Below are positions 6,338 through 43,037 of a stretch of 44,350 nucleotides of DNA, in pieces. The stretch lies in UHGV virus genome UHGV-0187309; one strand, 5' to 3'. Source of the stretch: a virus. Both the position numbers and the translations under genes were made by a program. How positions within the stretch are numbered: position 1 is the stretch's first letter; the number at the start of each line of letters is the position of its first letter. Below the pieces are notes generated by a model. That model made no database searches. It was not told the origin of the DNA and saw nothing but the letters and a program-made list of their open reading frames with translations.

Positions 6338-6946
6338 ATGCCCTGAAATATTTTCATGAAGCCCCCAGAAAAAATGGGGGCGATTTGCGTTTTTGAAATA
6401 GTTTAGAGACAGAATGTTCATAGAATATCCATTTAATTTAGATGATATGAACAAGTGAAGATGATATATCAAAGTTGAGATAAGCACAGTGCATAAAAAG
6501 CAGCCCCCATTTTTTATGTATGTAAAAGAAGATTCGGATATGTTATGATATAGACACGGTCAAGGACAGGCACCACCTTCCAAGACTGAAACACCACAAT
6601 GCCGGATGCATACGGCAGAGGATGTTCATATGATATCTGAACAGAATGCCATAGGTATACCCTGTGGTCGGAAGCCGATGTCATATGTCTACTCTGTGCT
6701 ATGCATCCGGCTATTTTTTTTGCCGCGGCATTCGGAGCATGGCAATTAGATCATTACATTTGTTAGTCAGGGCGCGCACTGGCGGACAGATGCTCATAGC
6801 GGAAATAACATCACGATTTGGAGTCTGTATAGACTGACAAGGTGTATTTCGTGTGGACATCGTCCCCTGCGTGCCTTTTTCTCTGGGACAGCAGTCGCGT
6901 TATGGGCATCTGCCGCTTGGTGTGTTCCTTGCAGAAAGGAACGATT

Positions 6947-7669
6947 ATGGAAAACGCAAATGTTCAGAATGCTGCCGCTATCACCGATAAGACCACCCTC
7001 GGCGAACTGCTTGCAATGCTTGACCTCGCTGATAAGGCAGGCAAGATGCCGACACCGAGAGAACTGTTTGAGACTGCCGGTTCGCCGATAGCCGATATGA
7101 ATGGCTGCACTCTCTTCAGCAACGGCTTCGCCATCTATCAGAATGTCACTGGGCGCACTGTTGTCTGGCTGCCGTACTGCAAGAGCTTCACCTATTACTT
7201 CGGCAAGCTCCGTGATTCCGAGAAAGACACGCTGACAGAGACCTATGAGCTGCCGGATGGATTTCTGGAAACACAGCCGTGGGTGATCGCAGTAACACTG
7301 ATCGGCGACCATCGTGTGGAGGCAAACAGCATGAACCGCACCGGCAGCCGCAAGGATACCACAGATTATGACAGCGCCGATAACGGCGATAAAGACGGTG
7401 ATGCAGAGGAGGCTTTGGCAGATCCGTATCGCAGGGCATTCAACTGGTATGACGGACGCATGGGCGAGAATCCGCAGGATGCCGTGGAGCGCAGAGAGAC
7501 ACGCGAGGAGATGCTTGCAGACATGACGGACAAGCAGCGTGAAGCCTTTATTATGTACTTCAGGGATGGTATGACGCAGGAAGAGATTGCTTCATATATA
7601 GGGGTAAGCCGTGATTCCATAAATGACAGGCTTGAAGGTGCTTTGAAAAAAGCAAAAAAATATTTTTAG
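6947..7669 (+). CDS. Sigma-70 region-4-like DNA-binding regulator
   Basis: C-terminal QREAFIMYFRDGMTQEEIASYIGVSRDSINDRLEGALKKAKK resembles sigma region 4 HTH; start at ATG 6947 (AAAGGAAC RBS) rather than the longer ORF start at 6842. Confidence 0.7.
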   Translation: MENANVQNAAAITDKTTLGELLAMLDLADKAGKMPTPRELFETAGSPIADMNGCTLFSNGFAIYQNVTGRTVVWLPYCKSFTYYFGKLRDSEKDTLTETYELPDGFLETQPWVIAVTLIGDHRVEANSMNRTGSRKDTTDYDSADNGDKDGDAEEALADPYRRAFNWYDGRMGENPQDAVERRETREEMLADMTDKQREAFIMYFRDGMTQEEIASYIGVSRDSINDRLEGALKKAKKYF

Positions 7670-17059: not shown

Positions 17060-17144
17060 GATCATACTCTCCGTATGATCCGCACTGAAAAGACGACAAA
17101 GCGGCGACAAAACGGTTACACCGCACTCTATGGAGGTGAAAACT

Positions 17145-17648
17145 ATGGCGCGTAAGAACAAACGCCTGAAAACAGAATACCACAGAGGTCTCGGTTTTGA
17201 TCCGCGAAAGTATATGACTTCCTACTCCCACCAAACTCGCTGTGAATCAATTCCGACTCCCGACCGTGCTCCAAAGCGCGGCGATATCTGGTTTGCGCGG
17301 CTCGGCACACATCCGAATTCCAGTGTGCAGGGCGGCACCCGTCCCGTTATCATCATTTCTAACGACCTCGGCAACGAACACGCTGACACCGTCAATGTTG
17401 TGCCGATGACCAGACACCTGAAAAAGCCGGAGCTGCCTTGTCACACTCCGCTTTCTCCCGGCAGCATTACCGATAGCAGACAGCCGCTTGAACTGTCAAT
17501 GGTGCTGGCGGAGCAGCTCACAACTGTCAGCAAGAACGCACTTCGCTATTATGCAGGTCATATTTCCGATGACGAAGCTATGAACCGCATCGAAACCGCT
17601 GTTATTGCGCAGCTCAGTCTTGAAAGGAGATATTCCAAATGCCTGTGA
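17145..17648 (+). CDS. MazF/PemK-like endoribonuclease-fold protein with ~45 aa N-terminal extension
   Basis: KRGDIWFARLGTHPNSSVQGGTRPVIIISNDLGNEHADTVNVVPMT matches the PemK/MazF core pattern (GDIW...G.EQ.G.RPV.V.S...N....V.V.P.T); GGAGGTGA RBS. Confidence 0.65.
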   Translation: MARKNKRLKTEYHRGLGFDPRKYMTSYSHQTRCESIPTPDRAPKRGDIWFARLGTHPNSSVQGGTRPVIIISNDLGNEHADTVNVVPMTRHLKKPELPCHTPLSPGSITDSRQPLELSMVLAEQLTTVSKNALRYYAGHISDDEAMNRIETAVIAQLSLERRYSKCL

Positions 17649-33230: not shown

Positions 33231-33341
33231 GAGATCCTATTCCATTGTATCCGAGTATACCATAGAATTTCAAGTATATCAAGTGTACACATACACCAGA
33301 TATGAGCAATGTATTTTCCTCGATATTCTGTGGTTTTAGCG

Positions 33342-33402: not shown

Positions 33403-33427
33403 AAAAACCGAATCGGAGGATACCAAA

Positions 33428-34372: not shown

Positions 34373-34636
34373 AGGCCTGCCCTTCGGGGCGGAAGAACAA
34401 GCGGAACGGCACGGCGGCGCACACAGCCGCCACGGTCTCGGCTCTCGCCTCGGTCGGTGCTTCTGCTTCGCAGAGGTTGCCACTGGCAACCCGCACCCCC
34501 GTGTGTGGCGGAAAGGGTATCCTCCGAATCGGTATCCCATCTCAGTCAACCGCGCCACACAGCGCAAATGTAGGCAAGGCATAAAATGCACAACATACGG
34601 CACAGAATCGCCCTCGATGATCTGTTCATTTACCCG

Positions 34637-34666
34637 CTTGATAATGCCGCCGAAATGAGTTAACAT
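34637..34666 (+). promoter_or_regulatory. Cassette promoter P3 (CTTGAT-18-TAACAT)
   Basis: Same -35/18/-10 geometry as other cassette promoters; precedes ATG 34706. Confidence 0.5.
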
Positions 34667-34705
34667 AGCACTACCGCAAGGAAAAAACGCAAAGGAGAAC
34701 ATAGC

Positions 34706-35173
34706 ATGAACAAGAAAAAATACTACATAGCCTACGGCAGCAACCTCAACATCCGCCAGATGCGATTCCGCTGCTCAGGCGCAAAGCCCATCGGCATTTC
34801 CGCGATTCCTGACTACGAACTGCTCTTCAAGGGCAGCAAGACGGGAGCGTACCTCACCATCGAGCCGAAGGACGGCGGGCTTGTTCCGGTCGCCGTGTGG
34901 GAAGTGACAGCCGACGATGAGAAGCACCTCGACATCTACGAGGGCTACCCGAACTTCTACTACAAGAAGGAAGTCCGCCTGCCAATCAGGCTGGCAAACG
35001 GCAAGACCAAAAAGGTCACGGCATTTGTCTACATCATGCACGAGGAGCGTGAGATTGCGATCCCGTCAATGACCTACATCCGCACCTGCGAGGAAGGCTA
35101 CCGCAACTTCGGCTTCGACACCAAGTTCCTTGATGCCGCCTACGAGATCAGCGCAAAGGAGGTACAGCGATGA
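34706..35173 (+). CDS. Gamma-glutamyl cyclotransferase-like (GGCT/AIG2-like) protein
   Basis: N-terminal YYIAYGSNLN signature and YEGYP Glu-containing motif. Confidence 0.8.
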   Translation: MNKKKYYIAYGSNLNIRQMRFRCSGAKPIGISAIPDYELLFKGSKTGAYLTIEPKDGGLVPVAVWEVTADDEKHLDIYEGYPNFYYKKEVRLPIRLANGKTKKVTAFVYIMHEEREIAIPSMTYIRTCEEGYRNFGFDTKFLDAAYEISAKEVQR

Positions 35174-35370
35174 AAGACCGCAACAAAGAGCCGCACATCT
35201 GCCCGAAATGCGGGCAGGCGTACACCGCCCGACCAGCTCTTTCCCGCGTGGATAACAGCCCAATCTGCCCCGACTGCGGAACGCGTGAAGCGCTTGAAAG
35301 CATCGGCGTCGGACGCGAGGAACAGGACAAGATTCTCGGCATCATCCACGAGAAGTACGAAGGCGAATAA
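35170..35370 (+). CDS. Small zinc-ribbon protein
   Basis: 66 aa; CPKCG...CPDCG Cys4; start overlaps the GGCT-like stop (ATGA). Confidence 0.6.
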   Translation: MKDRNKEPHICPKCGQAYTARPALSRVDNSPICPDCGTREALESIGVGREEQDKILGIIHEKYEGE

Positions 35371-35378
35371 GTCGGCAC

Positions 35379-35402
35379 AAAGGGGCGTTACAGCCCCTTT
35401 CC
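35379..35402 (+). terminator. Hairpin AAGGGGC-GTTACA-GCCCCTT after the zinc-ribbon gene (candidate terminator)
   Basis: 7 bp GC-rich stem with weak T-tract. Confidence 0.4.
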
Positions 35403-35526
35403 GCATTCTCAGGGATAACTTATCCCCCACTTTCCGGGCGTGACACGGCGCGTTCTGGCGCAAACTATGTACCTGTTCAGCTTGCTGAAAACGGCGATTC
35501 TTCTACGATTTATTTTGCACATAGGC

Positions 35527-35590
35527 GTGGACTTTTCAGGCAAAAGGCGGTAGTATGTGACACAACGGAAGGGCAGACAGCCCACCGGAA
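35527..35590 (+). promoter_or_regulatory. Cassette promoter P4 (GTGGAC-18-TAGTAT) plus conserved leader hairpin
   Basis: TAGTATGTGACACAACGGAAGGGCAGACAGCCCACCGG. Confidence 0.55.
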
Positions 35591-35613
35591 TTCATAACAT
35601 GGAGGATACGAAC

Positions 35614-36084
35614 ATGAACGACAGCTACTTTGAGGAGATGACCTTCCAGTGCGCCGCCTATGAACGCGCCAAAAAGGAGCGCGCCGAGCGCAAGGCTCAG
35701 ATTGCCGAAGCCCACGGCTACGACAGCCCGGAGGTGGACGCTTGGTACGCTGAGGAGAAGGCGGCAGGTCCTTACCCCTACAGCGGCAATGAGATGAAAG
35801 CCTACTGGGTGTACAAGATGCGCCGCGAGAACGACGGTGACGAGTTCGAGATGAGCGATTACTGCTGGGACAAGGAATTCCACGATTTCATCGAAACGCT
35901 CCGCAAGCTAGGCATCACCGAGTTCACGATCACCAATCAGAGCACGGCGCTGATGGAGAACATCTACGGATTTATTGCAGAAGGCTGCACGATGGTCGGA
36001 ACGCACACCATCACCAAGAAGAGCCTGCGCTGGGGCGAGGAAGAATACGAAACGGCACAGGGCATCCTTTTCAAGGTGAACTGA
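35614..36084 (+). CDS. Hypothetical protein
   Basis: 156 aa from ATG 35614 (GGAGGATACGAAC RBS). Confidence 0.7.
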   Translation: MNDSYFEEMTFQCAAYERAKKERAERKAQIAEAHGYDSPEVDAWYAEEKAAGPYPYSGNEMKAYWVYKMRRENDGDEFEMSDYCWDKEFHDFIETLRKLGITEFTITNQSTALMENIYGFIAEGCTMVGTHTITKKSLRWGEEEYETAQGILFKVN

Positions 36085-36092
36085 TATCGACA

Positions 36093-36130
36093 GGAGCAGG
36101 GCTTCGGCTCTGCTCCCCTCCCCCTTTTCC
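36093..36130 (+). terminator. Rho-independent terminator-like hairpin (10 bp stem, TTCG loop)
   Basis: GGAGCAGGGC-TTCG-GCTCTGCTCC followed by CCTCCCCCTTTTCC; near-identical hairpin also after 38529. Confidence 0.55.
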
Positions 36131-36200
36131 TCATGTGTAAATCCTACAATACGAAAGGCTGAGATCGGCGATTCTTCTACGTTTTATTTTGCACATAGGC

Positions 36201-36270
36201 GTGGACTTATCAGCAGGATCATGGTAATATGTGACACAACGGAAGGGCAGAACGCCTACCGAAAAACGAA
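36201..36270 (+). promoter_or_regulatory. Cassette promoter P5 (GTGGAC-18-TAATAT) plus leader hairpin
   Basis: TAATATGTGACACAACGGAAGGGCAGAACGCCTACCGAAAA. Confidence 0.55.
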
Positions 36271-36285
36271 ACGGAGGATAACACC

Positions 36286-36606
36286 ATGAACCCCTACACA
36301 CTGAGAAAGAGCCTGAACCTGATTGATGCCAACACGGCGATCACCCGCGAGGACTTCGAGAGCCTCTTCTGCAAGACTGCAGAGCGTGTCACCTTTACCT
36401 TCAACGGTTGGGACGGCAAGAGCTATGATGGCGAGAGGCGCAGCGGTTACGTTTACCGCACCATCATCGAGGGCTACGAGAATGTGAGATTCGTTAAGGT
36501 CGGCAAGGGACTGCATTACATCGATGAGGACAGCAGCATTACCGAGAAGGCTACGGGCATCGCCCACAAGGAAGCAGAGTGGCTGGTCGATGTGAAGAGA
36601 GCATAA
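36286..36606 (+). CDS. Hypothetical protein
   Basis: 106 aa; ACGGAGGATAA RBS. Confidence 0.7.
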   Translation: MNPYTLRKSLNLIDANTAITREDFESLFCKTAERVTFTFNGWDGKSYDGERRSGYVYRTIIEGYENVRFVKVGKGLHYIDEDSSITEKATGIAHKEAEWLVDVKRA

Positions 36607-36672
36607 GCAAAACAGCGGAGCCCTTCCTGCGGGGAGGGCTTACCGCAGAAAAAAACATGGAGGTTTACGAAC

Positions 36673-37056
36673 ATGAGTACGAATTCAAGAGTCGGAATTC
36701 TGCATCAGGACGGCGTCACGGAGACAATCTACTGCCATTGGGACGGCTACCCCGAACACCAGATGCCCATCCTCACCGAGCATTATAACACCGCCGAGAA
36801 GGTCAAGGCACTGCTTGCCCTTGGAGACATCAGCATCCTCGGCGAGCGCCTTGCTCCCGATGCGGATGAGCCGCACAGCTTTGAAAAGCCTGCCGATGGT
36901 GTGACGGTTGCTTACCACCGCGACCGCAAAGAGCCGATGCAGCCTGCGGTCACCCACAAGAGCGTTGTTTCCCTGATGAGCGATGACTGGGGCATTCCGT
37001 ATTACTACCTTTTCGATGAGGAAAAAGGAGCATGGCTTCCGCCGACCGAGGACTGA
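36673..37056 (+). CDS. Hypothetical protein
   Basis: 127 aa; GGAGG RBS; co-transcribed position after 36286 gene. Confidence 0.7.
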   Translation: MSTNSRVGILHQDGVTETIYCHWDGYPEHQMPILTEHYNTAEKVKALLALGDISILGERLAPDADEPHSFEKPADGVTVAYHRDRKEPMQPAVTHKSVVSLMSDDWGIPYYYLFDEEKGAWLPPTED

Positions 37057-37235
37057 TAGGTTCAGCCCTGCGGGGCTGACTTGCCCCACGTTGTCCTTTG
37101 TGCGGTTTTCCTGCGATAAGCTTGCCCCTGCGGAAAGCCGCCTCACACGGCGCGTTTGTGTGCCTCCTGTGGGCTTGGTGCTATGTATACAACAAATGGC
37201 GCAGATACGCCGATTTTGTTCTGAACATTTAGCCG

Positions 37236-37300
37236 CTTGCTATTCCGGAAAGATCATGGTAATATGCTACACAACGGAAGGGCAAACGCCCACCGAATAC
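37236..37300 (+). promoter_or_regulatory. Cassette promoter P6 (CTTGCT-18-TAATAT) plus leader hairpin
   Basis: TAATATGCTACACAACGGAAGGGCAAACGCCCACCGAATAC. Confidence 0.55.
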
Positions 37301-37321
37301 AAAACACGGAGGTAAACCACC

Positions 37322-37687
37322 ATGACAAAGAAGGAAATGAAAGCCGCAGTTGCCAAGCTGAAGATGCTGCAGAACGGCAAAGCCGCCCTTGAGGGAATGA
37401 CCGAAGCGGACTGCCTTGAGCTTTTCGGGATCAGCAGAGCGCAGGCACTTGCAAACACAAACGCCGCCCTTGCCAAAACCGAGCAGGAGATTTTCAGAGC
37501 CGAGCATCCGCTGACAGGCATCGACAAACAGCTCTTCGAGATCGCAGCAAAGCACCTGATCACGGTGCAGGAGCGCGGAGACCTTGAAGCCCGCCACTGC
37601 GACAGCGAGGACTTCATCGAGGGTTCGGTCTGGGGGCTGGAAGCCGCCCTCAAGGATGCCTACGAGGCAGGACGCAAGAGCAAGTAA
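37322..37687 (+). CDS. Hypothetical protein
   Basis: 121 aa; ACGGAGGTAAACC RBS. Confidence 0.7.
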   Translation: MTKKEMKAAVAKLKMLQNGKAALEGMTEADCLELFGISRAQALANTNAALAKTEQEIFRAEHPLTGIDKQLFEIAAKHLITVQERGDLEARHCDSEDFIEGSVWGLEAALKDAYEAGRKSK

Positions 37688-37749
37688 CCAAACGGAACAG
37701 CGCAGCCCTTCCGCAGGGAGGGGCTGCCAATCCCGAAGGAGGAAAGAAC

Positions 37750-37929
37750 ATGGATACATACGCACAGCTTGAAATGCTGACCGCAGTCATCGCAAACCTG
37801 TCGGCCACGGGAACATGGACGGAGCGAGAAGTGATGGAAACGCTGCTGGATGTCTTTGAACCGAAGGAGCTTGAACAGCTCGGCTACGGCGACTGCGTGA
37901 ACGCATACTTGGAAGAGTACGGCGGATAG
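37750..37929 (+). CDS. Small hypothetical protein (59 aa), absent from the supplied ORF track
   Basis: ATG 37750 preceded by GAAGGAGGAAAG RBS; translation MDTYAQLEMLTAVIANLSATGTWTEREVMETLLDVFEPKELEQLGYGDCVNAYLEEYGG; TAG at 37927-37929. Confidence 0.55.
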   Translation: MDTYAQLEMLTAVIANLSATGTWTEREVMETLLDVFEPKELEQLGYGDCVNAYLEEYGG

Positions 37930-38098
37930 CGACGACACACGCACCACGTTGCCTCGTGTGGGGCGGTGCCGGGGAGATGCGTACAGCTTGCCCCTGCGAA
38001 AAGCCGCCTTACACGGCGCGTTCTGGCGCGTCCTATACGATGTACAATTCCGCCCGACTTCCCGCCTCATGTTTGTCACATTTATTTTGCAGACAGAC

Positions 38099-38135
38099 GT
38101 GGACTTTTCTGCGAAAAGACGGTAATATGTGACTA
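38099..38135 (+). promoter_or_regulatory. Cassette promoter P7 (GTGGAC-18-TAATAT)
   Basis: GACGGTAATATGTGACTAC core as in P1. Confidence 0.55.
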
Positions 38136-38175
38136 CCGCAAGAGAAGCGGAATCAATCAAAAGGAGCGAATCTAC

Positions 38176-38529
38176 ATGAAAATTCTGGTATGCGAACCCG
38201 GCAAGCACCCCTACGTCAAGGACATCGAGTCGGGGCTGGAGAACCTTCAGCACGAGGTGGACGGACTGATTCAGGCCCTCTACCCATTTTCCGAAGAGGC
38301 GGCTGTTGTGTGCAACGAAGAAGGGCTGTTCCGCGATGACCTCGAATGGAACAGAACGGTCGATCCCTATGGTCCGATCAAGGGAACATTCTTCATTTGT
38401 GGGCTCGGCTTTGAAGATTTTACAGGACTGACCGATGAACAGATCGAAAAGTACACTAAGCTCTTCTGGCCTCCTGAGCTTTTCATCCCGACACCGAACG
38501 GCATGGTGGTGCTTCACATTGTGGAATGA
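38176..38529 (+). CDS. Hypothetical protein
   Basis: 117 aa from ATG 38176 (AAAAGGAGCG RBS). Confidence 0.7.
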   Translation: MKILVCEPGKHPYVKDIESGLENLQHEVDGLIQALYPFSEEAAVVCNEEGLFRDDLEWNRTVDPYGPIKGTFFICGLGFEDFTGLTDEQIEKYTKLFWPPELFIPTPNGMVVLHIVE

Positions 38530-38631
38530 CCGCAACAGGGGCAGGGCTTCGGCTCTGCTCCGCACTATTCCCCGGTCATAATGTACACAACTGAACGCCG
38601 AAAAATGCAGAAATGATCGTGATTACTCACG

Positions 38632-38695
38632 CTTGATAATGTAGGCAAGAAGAGTTATACTGTGTACAACGGAAGGGCGGAAAGCCCAGCCGAAA
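38632..38695 (+). promoter_or_regulatory. Cassette promoter P8 (CTTGAT-18-TATACT) plus leader hairpin
   Basis: TATACTGTGTACAACGGAAGGGCGGAAAGCCCAGCCGAAAA. Confidence 0.55.
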
Positions 38696-38718
38696 ACGAA
38701 AATGCGGAGGTACACACC

Positions 38719-38898
38719 ATGAAAACGAAGCAGGAACTGATCGAGAAGGCAAAGAAAGAGTGGGGCGAGACTTGGAACGAGGGCATGATCGAGTACGATG
38801 CCGAGTACAACGAGTACATCGTCTGGGTAGGCAAGCCGGACATCTACAAAGCCTTCTTCGATGCCGACACCCTCAGATGCATTGGCACGAAGTGCTGA
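38719..38898 (+). CDS. Small hypothetical protein (59 aa)
   Basis: ATG 38719 with GCGGAGGTACAC RBS. Confidence 0.6.
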   Translation: MKTKQELIEKAKKEWGETWNEGMIEYDAEYNEYIVWVGKPDIYKAFFDADTLRCIGTKC

Positions 38899-38953
38899 GA
38901 ACAACCGCCGCCCTTCGGGGCGGCACAACACCAATACTAAGGAGGACATTTAC

Positions 38954-39226
38954 ATGAGCGAGAACACAGAAAAGCGCGATGCAGCCGAAGAACTAGAACT
39001 TACCGATGCACAGGCAGACCGCAACGATGACATCTACGAGGCAGCTTTTGAATTCTGCAAGGTGCTGACCGAGAACCCCGACCTCGAATGGGACATGGCG
39101 TTCCTCGGTGAGATCGCCGACCTTGCCGCTGGCATCATGACCGAGCAGGGACACAAGGTGCGGTTCCCCAGTGTGGTCACCGAGCAGGACGGCACGCAGT
39201 ACATTGAAGAATACTACGGCGGCTGA
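38954..39226 (+). CDS. Small acidic hypothetical protein (90 aa)
   Basis: ATG 38954 with AAGGAGGACA RBS; highly acidic. Confidence 0.65.
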   Translation: MSENTEKRDAAEELELTDAQADRNDDIYEAAFEFCKVLTENPDLEWDMAFLGEIADLAAGIMTEQGHKVRFPSVVTEQDGTQYIEEYYGG

Positions 39227-39426
39227 TCGGCAAAACGGAGCAGTCCTTCTGCGGAGGGGCTGTTCCACGCCACGTTCGCTTGTGTGGGGGGCTTACGGCT
39301 TTCTGCGGATATCTTGCCCCGCGATAAAAGCCGCCCACACGGCGCATTTGTGTGCCTCCTGTGGCAAGGCATAATATGTACAACAACCGACAAAAAATCG
39401 CCTTGCACATTCTGGTAGTTTAGCCG

Positions 39427-39490
39427 CTTGATATATCTGCCGAAAAGAGTTATAGTGTGTACAACGGAACGGGAAACCGAGCCGAAAACT
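39427..39490 (+). promoter_or_regulatory. Cassette promoter P9 (CTTGAT-18-TATAGT) plus leader hairpin
   Basis: TATAGTGTGTACAACGGAACGGGAAACCGAGCCGAAAA. Confidence 0.55.
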
Positions 39491-39749: not shown

Positions 39750-39834
39750 ATAGAACGGTCGGTAGGCGGTAGCATTAAGCCGCCCATCCAAACCAAGACG
39801 GACACACATATAAATTCAAGGTGGATATACATAG

Positions 39835-39870
39835 GAGAGGCTTGCAGCACGCAGGCCTTTTCTTTATGCA
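39835..39870 (+). terminator. Candidate terminator hairpin before the packaging genes
   Basis: AGGCTTGC-AGCAC-GCAGGCCT stem-loop followed by TTTTCTTTAT. Confidence 0.45.
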
Positions 39871-39897: not shown

Positions 39898-40371
39898 ATG
39901 GCTCAGAGAGGCAGAAAACCGACGCCGACAGCAATCAAGGAACTGGAAGGCAATCCCGGAAAACGACCGCTGAATGATGCAGAGCCGAAGCCGGAACGCA
40001 AGGCACCGCCCTGTCCGAAGTGGCTGGAGCCCGAAGCAAAAAAGGAATGGCGCAGGCTGTCAAAGCAACTGGAGCAGATTGGTGTGCTGACCGAGGTCGA
40101 TCAGGCGGCATTCGCATCCTACTGTCAGGCATACGCACGATGGAAAGAAGCCGAGGAATTCATGACCCAGCACGGCACGATCGTAAAAACAAAATCAGGT
40201 TACTGGCAGCAGGTTCCGCAGGTATCCATTGCGCAAACTTATCTGAAGATCATGAACAAGATCGCAGAGCAGTTTGGCCTGACCCCGGCGGCAAGAAGCC
40301 GTATCACTGCCGGCGCAGATATGAAAAACGCTGCCGTTGACGATATGGATGAACTTCTCGGAGGTGGCTGA
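39898..40371 (+). CDS. Terminase small subunit (P27-family-like)
   Basis: MAQRGRKPTPTAIKELEGNPGKRP N-terminus and FGLTPAARSRI near the C-terminus; immediately upstream of and overlapping terminase large subunit. Confidence 0.8.
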   Translation: MAQRGRKPTPTAIKELEGNPGKRPLNDAEPKPERKAPPCPKWLEPEAKKEWRRLSKQLEQIGVLTEVDQAAFASYCQAYARWKEAEEFMTQHGTIVKTKSGYWQQVPQVSIAQTYLKIMNKIAEQFGLTPAARSRITAGADMKNAAVDDMDELLGGG

Positions 40372-43037
40372 TGGCGAGAACGGCAAAGGCAAGAGAAAGA
40401 CCTGCCAACTATCCGAAACTGAAGGATTATAAACCGACACGCTTTATGCTGCCGGAATCGCACTACGATGCGGCAAAGGCTGACCGAGCTGTGCGGTTCA
40501 TCGAGAATCTCTGCCATACCAAAGGACGCTGGGCAGGCAAACCGTTCTGGCTGCTTCCGTGGCAGGAACAGATCATCCGGGATATTTTCGGCATCGTCAA
40601 AGAGGACGATATGCGGCAATTTCGTACCGCCTATGTCGAAATTCCAAAGAAAAATGGGAAGCAGCTTGCACTGGATACACCGATCCCGACTCCGCAGGGA
40701 TTCACCAATATGGGAGATCTGAAGGTCGGAGATACAGTATTCGATGAAAACGGCATTCCGTGCCATGTGGTTGCGAAAAGTCCTGTGGATGATACAGAGC
40801 AAGCCTACAAGCTGACCTTCAAGGACGGCACCTCGATCATTGCCGGGGAAAGGCATCTGTGGAACTGTCAGTATATTTACGGCAAACGCAAGGATGTTCT
40901 CTGGACGACCGGCGAGATCTATCGCAGGACAACGGAATACAGACAGCGTTTTTCCGACAGACCACAGACAAAGCGGGATTCCCTTATCCGAATTCCGGTG
41001 TGCGGTGTCCTTCAGACAGAAGCGGCAGTTTTACCGATTGATCCGTATCTGTACGGCTACTGGCTCGGAAACGGTAATGTGACCATGCCGGAGATCACTG
41101 TTCGGACGGAGGATGTCGAGGATATCATCTCGAATATTCCGTATAAGGTACACAACCGTTATCCGCAGAAATGCGGCGGCAGTGAGATCATAAAGTACAA
41201 TGAACTGAAAGCAGTACTACTTGACAGCTTCCGTGAAAAGAAGATCCGACCAGAATATCTGAGGGCATCCGCAGAGCAGAGATGGGCATTACTGCAAGGG
41301 CTTATGGATTCGGACGGCTGTATCGGCGAACGCAAAGGGCAAAGTGTGTATGTCACAACGCTGCGAGAGCTGGCGCTTTCCGTCAGAGAACTGCTGTGGT
41401 CACTCGGCATCAAAAATGCAGTGAAATGTGAGCCTTCTACACGGCATGGGTGGCCGACCGGCGAGATTTTGTATATCGTCCGTTTTACAACCTTTGATGG
41501 CCAACCGACATCAAGGCTTAAACGCAAAAATACACGCACACAGGCGCGGTTAAAGGAAACTCGCTCCTGTTTTCATTATCTGCTGGATATTCAACCTGTA
41601 AATCATCCTGTAAAAATGCAGTGCATTCAGGTGGACAGTCCGAGTCACCAATATCTCGCAGGACCGTCATTTGTGCCTACGCACAACAGTGAGCTTGCAG
41701 CGGCAATTGCACTGTATCTGCTCTACGCCGACAACGAGCCGTCTGCTGAGGTCTACGGCGCTGCTGCTGATCGTGGGCAGGCATCCATTGTATTCGATGT
41801 CGCCAAAAGAATGGTTGAGATGACACCGGCACTTCTGAAACGCTCAAAAATCATGGCGGCGACAAAGCGTCTGGTGAATTACAGTAATGTTGGCTTTTAT
41901 CAGGTGCTTTCAGCGGAAGTCGGTACAAAGCACGGATTGAATGTATCCGGTCTGGTTTTGGATGAACTTCATGCCCAACCGAACCGCAGCCTTGTGGATG
42001 TTCTCACAAAGGGTTCCGGTGATGCCCGTACTCAGCCGCTGTACTTCCTGATCACAACCGCCGGAACGGATCGCAACAGCATCTGCTACGAGTATCACAC
42101 GAAAGCAAAAGATATTCTGGACGGCAGGCGCATTGATCCGTCCTTCTATCCTGTGATCTACGGCTTGAACGATGATGACGACTGGAACGCAGAGGAGTCA
42201 TGGTATAAGGCAAATCCCTCGCTCGGATACACTATCGCCATCGACCGAGTCCGCGATGCTCACCGGGAAGCCCTTACAAATCCCGCTGAAGAAAATGTAT
42301 TCCGTCAGCTGAGGCTTGACCAGTGGGTAGGCAGTGCGGTGGCATGGATTCCGGAGCATATCTACGACAGGGGCAATCTTCCGATCGACCTCGAAAAGCT
42401 CCGGGGACGGGAGTGCTACGCAGGTCTTGACCTATCCAGCACATCGGATATCACGGCATTTGTGCTGGTGTTCCCTCCGCTGCATGACGGCGAGAAATAC
42501 ATCGTTGTCCCGCACTTCTGGCTGCCGAGAGAAACGCTCGATTTGCGAGTACGGCGAGACCATGTTCCCTACGATGTATGGGAGCGCATGGGATTATTTC
42601 ATATCACCGAGGGCAATGTGGTCGATTACAATTTCGTGCGGAAAACGATCAACGAGCTGCACACGATGTACAACATCAAGGAAATTGCTGCCGACCGCTG
42701 GAATGCCACACAGCTTATCACAGACCTTGAGGGAGACGGATTTACCGTTGTTCCGATGGGTATGGGCTTCAAGGATATGTCCCCGCCGATGAAGGAACTG
42801 TACAAGCTCATACTCGAGGGGCAGTTTATCCACGGCGGCAACCCTGTACTCCGCTGGATGGCAGGAAATGTGGTCGCTGAAATTGATGCAGCGGAGAACA
42901 TCAAACCAAGTAAAAAGAAAAGTACAGAAAAGATTGACGGTATCGTGGCATGGATCATGGCACTTGACCGCTGCATCCGCCACGAAATGCAGGGCAGTGT
43001 CTATGACGAACCCGGCCACGATCTTGTGGTCATCTGA
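40371..43037 (+). CDS. Terminase large subunit interrupted by an intein in the Walker A P-loop
   Basis: N-extein ends YVEIPKKNGK and C-extein resumes SELAAAIALYLLYADNEPSAEVYGAA, together restoring PKKNGKS; downstream VLDELH Walker B and nuclease domain. Confidence 0.9.
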   Translation: MARTAKARERPANYPKLKDYKPTRFMLPESHYDAAKADRAVRFIENLCHTKGRWAGKPFWLLPWQEQIIRDIFGIVKEDDMRQFRTAYVEIPKKNGKQLALDTPIPTPQGFTNMGDLKVGDTVFDENGIPCHVVAKSPVDDTEQAYKLTFKDGTSIIAGERHLWNCQYIYGKRKDVLWTTGEIYRRTTEYRQRFSDRPQTKRDSLIRIPVCGVLQTEAAVLPIDPYLYGYWLGNGNVTMPEITVRTEDVEDIISNIPYKVHNRYPQKCGGSEIIKYNELKAVLLDSFREKKIRPEYLRASAEQRWALLQGLMDSDGCIGERKGQSVYVTTLRELALSVRELLWSLGIKNAVKCEPSTRHGWPTGEILYIVRFTTFDGQPTSRLKRKNTRTQARLKETRSCFHYLLDIQPVNHPVKMQCIQVDSPSHQYLAGPSFVPTHNSELAAAIALYLLYADNEPSAEVYGAAADRGQASIVFDVAKRMVEMTPALLKRSKIMAATKRLVNYSNVGFYQVLSAEVGTKHGLNVSGLVLDELHAQPNRSLVDVLTKGSGDARTQPLYFLITTAGTDRNSICYEYHTKAKDILDGRRIDPSFYPVIYGLNDDDDWNAEESWYKANPSLGYTIAIDRVRDAHREALTNPAEENVFRQLRLDQWVGSAVAWIPEHIYDRGNLPIDLEKLRGRECYAGLDLSSTSDITAFVLVFPPLHDGEKYIVVPHFWLPRETLDLRVRRDHVPYDVWERMGLFHITEGNVVDYNFVRKTINELHTMYNIKEIAADRWNATQLITDLEGDGFTVVPMGMGFKDMSPPMKELYKLILEGQFIHGGNPVLRWMAGNVVAEIDAAENIKPSKKKSTEKIDGIVAWIMALDRCIRHEMQGSVYDEPGHDLVVI
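40662..41687 (+). mobile_element. Intein (about 342 aa) with LAGLIDADG-like homing endonuclease region, class-3-like features
   Basis: Begins QLALDTPI (block A-like, Gln not Cys/Ser at position 1), block B GTSIIAGERHLW, LAGLIDADG-like LLQGLMDSDGCIGE, block F/G MQCIQVDSPSHQYLAGPSFVPTHN then Ser. Confidence 0.65.

Follow-up and report, generated by a model that had tools for sequence, protein, structure and literature searches.

A repeated composite of a predicted long hairpin and a promoter-like core between gene cassettes of a Clostridia phage

RESULTS

The virus genome UHGV-0187309, analyzed here over its full 44,350 nucleotides (nt) and referred to as the window, carries two families of intergenic repeats, A and B, in a run of small genes on the + strand. 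Both families are real and stand far above chance. Family A is a composite of ~120 nt in which an imperfect inverted repeat of ~80 nt is followed by a promoter-like core, and it has a role in recombination among natural relatives of the phage. Our favored reading, held with about even confidence, is that family A is a linker between cassettes resembling the PeSL motifs of T4-like phages: a hairpin in the sense-strand RNA joined to an auxiliary promoter, with the repetition of the element driving modular recombination.

Copies of family A in the window

A repeat finder returned three 65-nt copies (37108-37172, 37974-38038, and 39300-39364; 74 to 75% identity), a partial copy (35438-35468), and a 90-nt match between 34573-34662 and 39363-39452. 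The core motif occurred twice, versus 0.03 occurrences expected. An nhmmer profile made from the three copies matched the window copies with E values of 1e-28 to 1e-34, and the full copies all begin at a conserved CCACGTT (37086, 37944, and 39270). A preliminary description of this DNA had presented family A as a GC-rich element of 60 to 75 bp at five positions. A copy or a partial copy is present at each of the five, which confirms the repeat; that description missed, however, the hairpin nature and the promoter-like 3' part of what is a ~120-nt element. Full copies begin 35 to 45 nt further 5', and the added sequence is the 5' arm of the long hairpin. The copy that had been placed at 34556-34612 is present as a divergent variant, with homology spanning 34489-34643 and a different interior. 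The copies and their cores are as follows.

34496-34570, + strand: family A hairpin, divergent variant in which the foot is kept and the interior is swapped for GGGTATCCTCCGAATCGGTATCCC (nhmmer match 34489-34643; variant also present in relatives; its own fold, z = +0.8, is no better than shuffles)
34573-34596, + strand: promoter-like core GGCAAGGCATAAAATGCACAACAT (repeat finder)
35438-35475, + strand: partial family A copy holding only the 3' arm, plus CTATGTACC (84% match to 38006-38036)
37086-37162, + strand: family A hairpin in the spacer after the gene for a 127-amino-acid (aa) protein (covariance model match 37086-37197; fold)
37171-37195, + strand: promoter-like core, degenerate, GCTATGTATACAACAA
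37944-38026, + strand: family A hairpin with a different interior (nhmmer match 37943-38050; fold of -50.6 kcal/mol, z = -2.9)
38032-38049, + strand: degenerate core CCTATACGATGTACAATT
39270-39354, + strand: family A hairpin, best copy (covariance model match 39270-39388, 121 bits; fold)
39363-39386, + strand: promoter-like core GGCAAGGCATAATATGTACAACAA, -10-like CATAAT/TAATAT, no -35

The copy at 37944 starts 15 nt past the stop codon of a 59-aa gene with no intervening hairpin; the upstream mRNA would therefore run into the family A hairpin. Family A is noncoding on either strand, since the copies differ by indels of 1 to 2 nt. A small minus-strand open reading frame (ORF) in the 39.3-kb copy, with AGGAGG 7 nt before its ATG, was rejected because the ATG is ACG or TTG in other copies, and short + strand ORFs starting at a conserved ATGTAC were rejected because neither their lengths (8 to 30 codons) nor their stops are conserved.

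Distribution and orientation of family A

Further copies were collected from IMG/VR by exact-pattern matching (65 loci, of which 22 were true), from species genomes (96 loci, of which 2 were true), and from 80 loci that encode a close relative of TerS. Together these yielded 319 profile matches with 57 distinct hairpin cores. All 112 matches to a covariance model (described below) were cooriented with terS and lay upstream of it, and related loci held up to 9 copies each. The copies are confined to the accessory-gene region. More than 100 of them share a single orientation and a single kind of site, with a stop codon on one side and a promoter on the other.

The core pattern matched 96 stretches among 185,579 species genomes, and the element itself was found in 2 of them, an Oscillospiraceae metagenome-assembled genome (MAG), where 8 copies lie within 8 kb, and a MAG of rumen Clostridia. 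These two stretches are prophage-like arrays, and the copies matched by the covariance model are all cooriented; on these grounds we rejected a host-genome repeat of the REP, ERIC, or MITE-like kind, which would be dispersed in both orientations. Precise presence or absence of the element alone, as filled and empty sites of such a mobile repeat would give, was not seen among the 80 terS loci and 24 loci collected earlier. Rfam 15 gave no match at gathering score in the window, the sole permissive match being PhotoRC-I at chance level (E = 0.64). BLAST of the whole spacer found no match among deposited phages or plasmids, and nothing was found in the literature on the nearest deposited phages (PV0364xx records).

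Predicted fold of the family A hairpin

Almost all of the 57 distinct copies folded as one long, bulged hairpin of ~80 nt, with a mean z score of -2.5 relative to dinucleotide shuffles. The hairpin has ~28 bp and is irregular. Its foot is conserved, with CCACGUU..CCGUGUGGGG pairing with CCCCACACGG..GCG..UGUG (in finer form, CCACG..CGCC-CGUGUGGGG with CCCCACACGG-C-GCG..UGUG). The interior is variable, and several unrelated yet self-complementary versions occur among the copies: the common type is CGGCUUUCUGCG/CGCAGAAAGCCG, and others are GCGGUUUUCC/GGAAAGCCGC, CGCCGUUCUG/CAGAACGGCG (in the relative L226), and GGGUAUCCUCCGAAUCGGUAUCCC (in the 34.5-kb copy). The apical loop GGAUAACUUGCC, also written GGATAACTTGCC, is conserved as strongly as the stems, and the conserved blocks include ACTTGCC.

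We built a covariance model from a hand-drawn structure and used it to align 112 matches (78 distinct). In the alignment of distinct sequences, 82.3% of cells were paired, compared to 77.2 ± 0.4% in shuffles (0 of 500 as high) and 28 to 52% in slid controls. Compensatory changes on both sides were found in 19 of the 28 pairs (13.3 ± 1.7 expected; 0 of 500), and the covariation score was 0.175 versus 0.115. GU/UG cells outnumbered AC/CA cells on the sense strand (178 versus 107), an excess that leans weakly toward the sense strand. Folding energy did not serve to choose a strand, the two being within 1 kcal/mol of each other. A local hairpin, GGCGC-N6-GYGCC, is an alternative to the extended foot and scored about the same. 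A pseudoknot between the loop (CUUGCC) and downstream GGCAAG was discarded, as 74.9% of its cells were paired versus 76.1% in shuffles, with no covariation.

The promoter-like core and the main promoters

The core, GGCAAGG-CATAAT-(AT)GTACAAC, lies ~10 to 20 nt past the hairpin and is kept even in the most distant copies (e.g., GGCAAGGCATAAACTACACAA). Its geometry, a hexamer whose second position is A and whose sixth is T, followed by 0 to 2 nt and GTACA(CA)AC, recurs in the main promoter units at their -10/start region (TATAGT-GT-GTACAACGG and TAATAT-G-TGACACAACGG); these units precede each cassette. No conserved -35 sequence was found before the core, and a scan for consensus promoters does not call it. 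Elsewhere in the window, neither the core nor the ATGTACAAC motif occurs above chance. Two further features belong here.

38574-38591, + strand: solitary promoter-like core GGTCATAATGTACACAAC, no hairpin
39428-39456, + strand: main sigma-70-type promoter of the next cassette, TTGATA-17-TATAGT, 42 nt downstream of a family A core (39386 to 39428) in the spacer labeled IGR10

The main promoters are all followed by the same leader, a 5' hairpin of the form ACAACGGAAGGGC-loop-GCCC (33378, 35562, 36236, 37271, 38666, and 39461; six copies versus 0.9 expected). Their start regions also contain the palindromes GTGTACAC and TGTGACACA, which could be operator sites.

Recombinant junctions in relatives

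BLAST of relatives against the window revealed heavy mosaicism. Fourteen contigs lack a 1.3-kb block (about 38022 to 39270) holding the DUF3846 gene and two small genes, so that 38022 is joined to 39270. Up to 38022 these contigs are 99% identical to the window, and the overlap at the junction, 78 to 79 nt, is the family A repeat itself. Two variants of the crossover were present within the same pair of copies, one between CCTTACACGGCGC and ATTTG and the other between GCCGCC and CACACGG. Other breakpoints fell at the 5' edge of the hairpin (37078/37080, 37944, and 39266-39270), in its loop (39314), in short hairpins, and at stop or start codons. Gene-order maps by protein family, drawn for 27 loci with 84 to 100% identical TerS in place of a k-mer clustering of flanks that was too coarse, contained the same gene families in differing order and copy number, and nearly all junctions carried the element, whole or in part.

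Family B, other short hairpins, and a terminator

Family B consists of three short, highly stable hairpins of 9 to 13 bp (80% identity; minimum free energy of -25 to -27.5 kcal/mol) that sit directly past stop codons. These confirm the short hairpins of the preliminary description, two of which it placed between genes and without a T-tract. The spacers of these two copies measure 66 and 62 nt and have no promoter, and the third copy has no T-tract either.

36615-36646, + strand: family B copy b1, C(UGCG)G loop, intercistronic, followed by an A-tract and a ribosome-binding site (RBS)
37702-37727, + strand: family B copy b2, GCAG loop, intercistronic
39237-39266, + strand: family B copy b3, C(UGCG)G loop, directly upstream of family A
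39834-39867, + strand: canonical intrinsic terminator, a hairpin plus UUUUCUUUAU, just upstream of terS (z = -4.5)

Further hairpins in this region are capped by UUCG (34375, 36093, 38538, and 38907) or UGCG (37062), the cap found on two of the three family B copies. No T-tract follows the family A or family B hairpins on the + strand, as an intrinsic terminator would have. The hairpin at 39834-39867 provides an internal comparison: since a textbook terminator exists there, the hairpins that have no U-tract are unlikely to be efficient intrinsic terminators in this phage.

Together with the other UUCG- and UGCG-capped hairpins, family B looks like the C(UUCG)G intercistronic hairpins that Tuerk et al. 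reportedly described in phage T4 in 1988. Both are GC stems with UNCG loops (here UGCG and UUCG) between phage genes; in family B, however, one copy has a GCAG loop and the three copies share sequence beyond the loop, which indicates that they are paralogous. By this analogy, they may be sense-strand RNA elements that punctuate or protect messages. The most likely function of family B is protection or punctuation of mRNA, as a barrier at the 3' end or a partial attenuator, with inefficient termination.

On the + strand, AAAAC precedes each family B hairpin; read from the minus strand, the hairpin is then followed by GUUUU (e.g., 39227-39266), and the family B hairpins could also stop antisense transcription. 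No obvious promoter lies between the terminator at 39834-39867 and terS, an arrangement that makes the transcription of the packaging and late genes puzzling.

Genomic context

The window is a segment of a phage genome in which all cassette genes are on the + strand. A Pfam scan of 40 window ORFs identified, at the left end and on the minus strand, a LexA/CI-type HTH-S24 repressor, a thymidine kinase, and an SRAP peptidase. A long + strand block follows, encoding a sigma-70 region-4 protein, a DUF2800 nuclease, an Enc34-type single-stranded DNA (ssDNA)-binding protein, PolA, an SNF2 helicase, a MazF/PemK-like protein, a D5-type primase, MetK, NrdD, and two DNA methylases. From 33.4 to 39.8 kb runs a series of small + strand genes (amidoligase, GGACT, zinc ribbon, DUF7698, DUF6900, DUF3846, and DUF7678, with several others that have no Pfam family), and TerS (39877) and TerL (40371) come after this accessory run. 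The phage is of a temperate and gut type, from Clostridia (Oscillospiraceae associated), with a hyperplastic accessory-gene region.

The + strand block opens with the gene for the sigma-70 region-4 protein (275 aa; 6842-7669), and the MazF/PemK-like endoribonuclease is encoded at 17130-17648. Either protein could act on the repeated promoter and leader motifs; UACA within the conserved GUACAAC resembles known MazF sites.

The spacers on both sides of the amidoligase gene have features of their own. Upstream, two overlapping strong sigma-70-like matches (10/12) on the minus strand at 33244-33282 are directed away from the gene. Downstream, ~60 to 70 nt (34428-34496) are absent or different in most close relatives, whose alignments skip from 34427/34434 to 34497. 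The sequence GGTATCCTCCGAATCGGT (34516-34533), in the interior of the family A variant, is complementary to the amidoligase 5' untranslated region (UTR) and RBS, ACCGAATCGGAGGATACC (33407-33424), with a predicted duplex of -32 kcal/mol. Several relatives keep a version of this duplex of 10 to 17 bp (GUAUCCUCCG with CGGAGGAUAC), and the complementarity could represent a 3'-5' anti-RBS interaction.

Within TerL (40371-43037), a LAGLIDADG-domain insertion occupies 40865-41569. In many close relatives these ~700 nt are replaced by ~150 nt, indicating that an intein or homing-endonuclease insertion is polymorphic in the lineage.

DISCUSSION

We infer that family A would work as a linker in the following way. 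It would be placed after the stop codon of one cassette, or after a short UNCG hairpin, and ~40 nt ahead of the next sigma-70-type promoter, as in IGR10. Because no U-tract terminator comes before the hairpin, the mRNA of the upstream cassette would have the hairpin at its 3' end, where it may act as a stabilizer or attenuator and so insulate neighboring cassettes. The core may provide an auxiliary start site, probably a factor-dependent one. Since 100 to 290 bp recur almost unchanged between cassettes and always point the same way, recombination of the phage at pairs of copies would delete, duplicate, or exchange cassettes. The preliminary description had listed RNA processing among the possible roles; a function at the RNA level would be in keeping with how the hairpin is built, with the UNCG capping, and with an orientation that is always sense. 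Protein binding at the repeats, another of its proposals, is neither supported nor excluded.

The system closest to this reading is that of the PeSLs of T4-like phages, repeated composite promoter/stem-loop motifs through which modules are shuffled in hyperplastic regions (Arbiol et al. 2010, PMC2839356; Comeau et al. 2014, PMC4122927). The class is further marked by a sigma-70-like promoter with both -35 and -10, by promoter and terminator activity in reporters, and by mini-circles. As with PeSLs, the composite motifs of family A recur in spacers of a hyperplastic region, upstream of small genes with unknown functions; a stable stem-loop adjoins a promoter-like part; and indels or replacements between close relatives are bounded by the motifs. 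The differences are also clear. There is no sequence homology, and the element is carried here by a Clostridia phage with a lysogeny-type repressor and not by a T4-like myovirus. PeSLs have a short GC stem, whereas the family A hairpin is ~80 nt long and bulged, with a conserved loop. Moreover, the promoter-like part of family A has no -35 and lies upstream of a second, canonical promoter.

Several observations weigh against our reading. Single copies in the window have modest z scores, between -1.4 and -2.9, with the 34.5-kb variant at +0.8. Unfitted MAFFT alignments gave a weak consensus fold, with an RNAalifold covariation term of -0.51, and on them the hand-drawn 28-pair structure was 86% paired but did not exceed column shuffles, the sequences being too similar. 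Structural covariation is therefore significant solely on the model-fitted alignment, and given the fitting to the model and the relatedness of the sequences, we regard it as supportive but not conclusive. When one candidate pair (C-G/U.G/U-A, beside a GUGUG/CACAC helix) was tested without an alignment, the result was not significant (P = 0.35). There is little difference between the folding of the sense and antisense strands (-36.3 versus -35.5 kcal/mol), which leaves room for a DNA-level or antisense role. A strongly conserved apical loop and foot would be superfluous for a hairpin that merely stabilizes mRNA and hint at specific recognition. Finally, not every deletion joins two copies of the element: one (37163 to 37775; L007 and L047) starts within a family A copy and ends, by microhomology, in the gene that follows, and another (37856 to 39164; L048 and L166) lies inside genes and fuses two small ORFs. 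The junction overlaps of these deletions are 2 to 3 nt, showing that illegitimate recombination also remodels the region. Because the junction positions vary and such deletions use microhomology inside genes, cassette exchange looks homology driven rather than the work of a dedicated site-specific system. The earlier proposal that the repeats are recombination sites for cassette shuffling thus holds in that gene-content differences in relatives end in intergenic modules, while a dedicated site is unlikely.

The conservation of the loop and foot also bears on the alternative that the hairpin is a specific cis-acting RNA signal, either for processive antitermination of the nut, put, or EAR kind past the terS-proximal terminator or for cleavage by RNase III or another endonuclease, as in T7 or SP82 early mRNAs. 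We consider this alternative unlikely, although several observations favor it: the loop and foot are conserved as much as the stems; the sense orientation is strict; an irregular hairpin of ~28 bp has the size of an RNase III substrate, which is an irregular hairpin of ~20 bp or longer; the last cassette is separated from terS by a canonical terminator that no obvious late promoter follows; and the UNCG loops of neighboring hairpins point to selection at the level of + strand RNA. The RNase III processing sites of T7 early and late mRNA and SP82 early mRNA, reportedly described by Panganiban and Whiteley in 1983, are, like the predicted hairpins of family A, families of similar, irregular long hairpins between genes on polycistronic phage transcripts, in the sense orientation; however, they have no sequence similarity to family A, in which a promoter follows each hairpin. 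The RNA-signal alternative also has to contend with the lack of a match in Rfam, known antitermination RNAs included, with a single long hairpin unlike the two-stem architecture of put, with relatives (L015, L060, and L063) that carry just the 3' half of the element, and with the loop-tail pseudoknot, which does not covary; no candidate RNA-binding partner was identified. At the other extreme, the element may be functionless, a leftover copied along with promoters when cassettes are duplicated or exchanged, with the hairpin a by-product of a GC-rich inverted duplication. The copies are indeed paralogous, the element evolves about as fast as the neighboring genes (76 to 87% identity between relatives), covariation is not significant on unfitted alignments, and truncated copies are tolerated (35438-35475 and the L015 type). 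We nevertheless find this improbable, since complementarity is kept in copies whose interiors have diverged past recognition, the columns next to the loop, foot, and core vary while these motifs themselves are conserved, and more than 100 copies share one class of position and one orientation.

Two further alternatives place the function in DNA. The inverted repeat and core might form a promoter without a -35 that, like late promoters of the P2 Ogr type, is turned on or off when a phage protein binds the upstream dyad; the sigma-70 region-4 protein (6842-7669) and the 66-aa zinc-ribbon protein (35170-35370) are candidates for such a protein. The conserved -10-like CATAAT and start region without a conserved -35, the recurrence of GGCAAG/CTTGCC in the loop, core, and downstream spacer, the presence in the phage of both a sigma region-4 protein and a small zinc ribbon, and the equal folding of the two strands would all suit this idea. 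We give it little credence, however, as ~50 bp separate the halves of the dyad, more than a simple dimer site would allow, and the variable interior keeps a complementarity that binding of duplex DNA does not require; in addition, G.U-type changes exceed A.C-type changes on the sense strand, and the motif is absent before terS and elsewhere in the window. That family A is a site like the attC of integrons, an ssDNA hairpin cut by a dedicated recombinase that excises or inserts cassettes, we regard as highly improbable. It shares with attC an imperfect palindrome with conserved ends and a variable center, on the 3' side of the cassette and in a single orientation, and several similarity breakpoints do fall at the 5' edge of the hairpin. 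Yet the scanned window ORFs include no tyrosine recombinase/integrase or HUH domain; the RYYYAAC/GTTRRRY core sites (R'/R'' boxes) are absent, the ends being CCACGTT... and ...GCGYRTTTGTG; every cassette has its own promoter, in contrast to the mostly promoterless cassettes of integrons; and the junctions are at no fixed nucleotide, as illustrated by the two crossovers in one copy pair and the one in the loop.

Conservation of the loop and foot would allow for a specific reader, whether in antitermination, in processing, or as a recombinase on folded DNA. Family A may accordingly be a structured cis element of a new class with a dedicated reader, either an RNA that enables polymerase or transcripts to get past the terminator before the packaging and late genes or a folded ssDNA site for an unrecognized recombinase; this, too, seems to us rather improbable. 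If the ssDNA-recombinase version were true, the phage would carry, as its accessory region, an array of cassettes that is actively shuffled like an integron.

Linker or boundary sequences are also said to occur in lambdoid phages, in accounts by Susskind and Botstein in 1978 and Clark et al. in 2001. Those, like family A, are short, conserved intergenic sequences at module borders that favor homologous exchange, but they are single copy per module border, whereas family A is a multicopy, structured family within one genome.

Phage accessory regions contain many small uncharacterized genes, often for counter-defense, and their fast turnover is only partly understood. As a cassette linker of the kind we favor, family A would be a clear natural example, outside the T4-like phages, of a multicopy structured linker at nearly every cassette border with crossovers inside the linker. 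In the form of a covariance model, the element could serve to delimit cassettes in uncultivated Oscillospiraceae-type phages, and it would offer a testable RNA motif that is absent from Rfam. It may also offer a system for asking whether cassette insulation, a matter of regulation, and recombination, a matter of evolvability, share one sequence.

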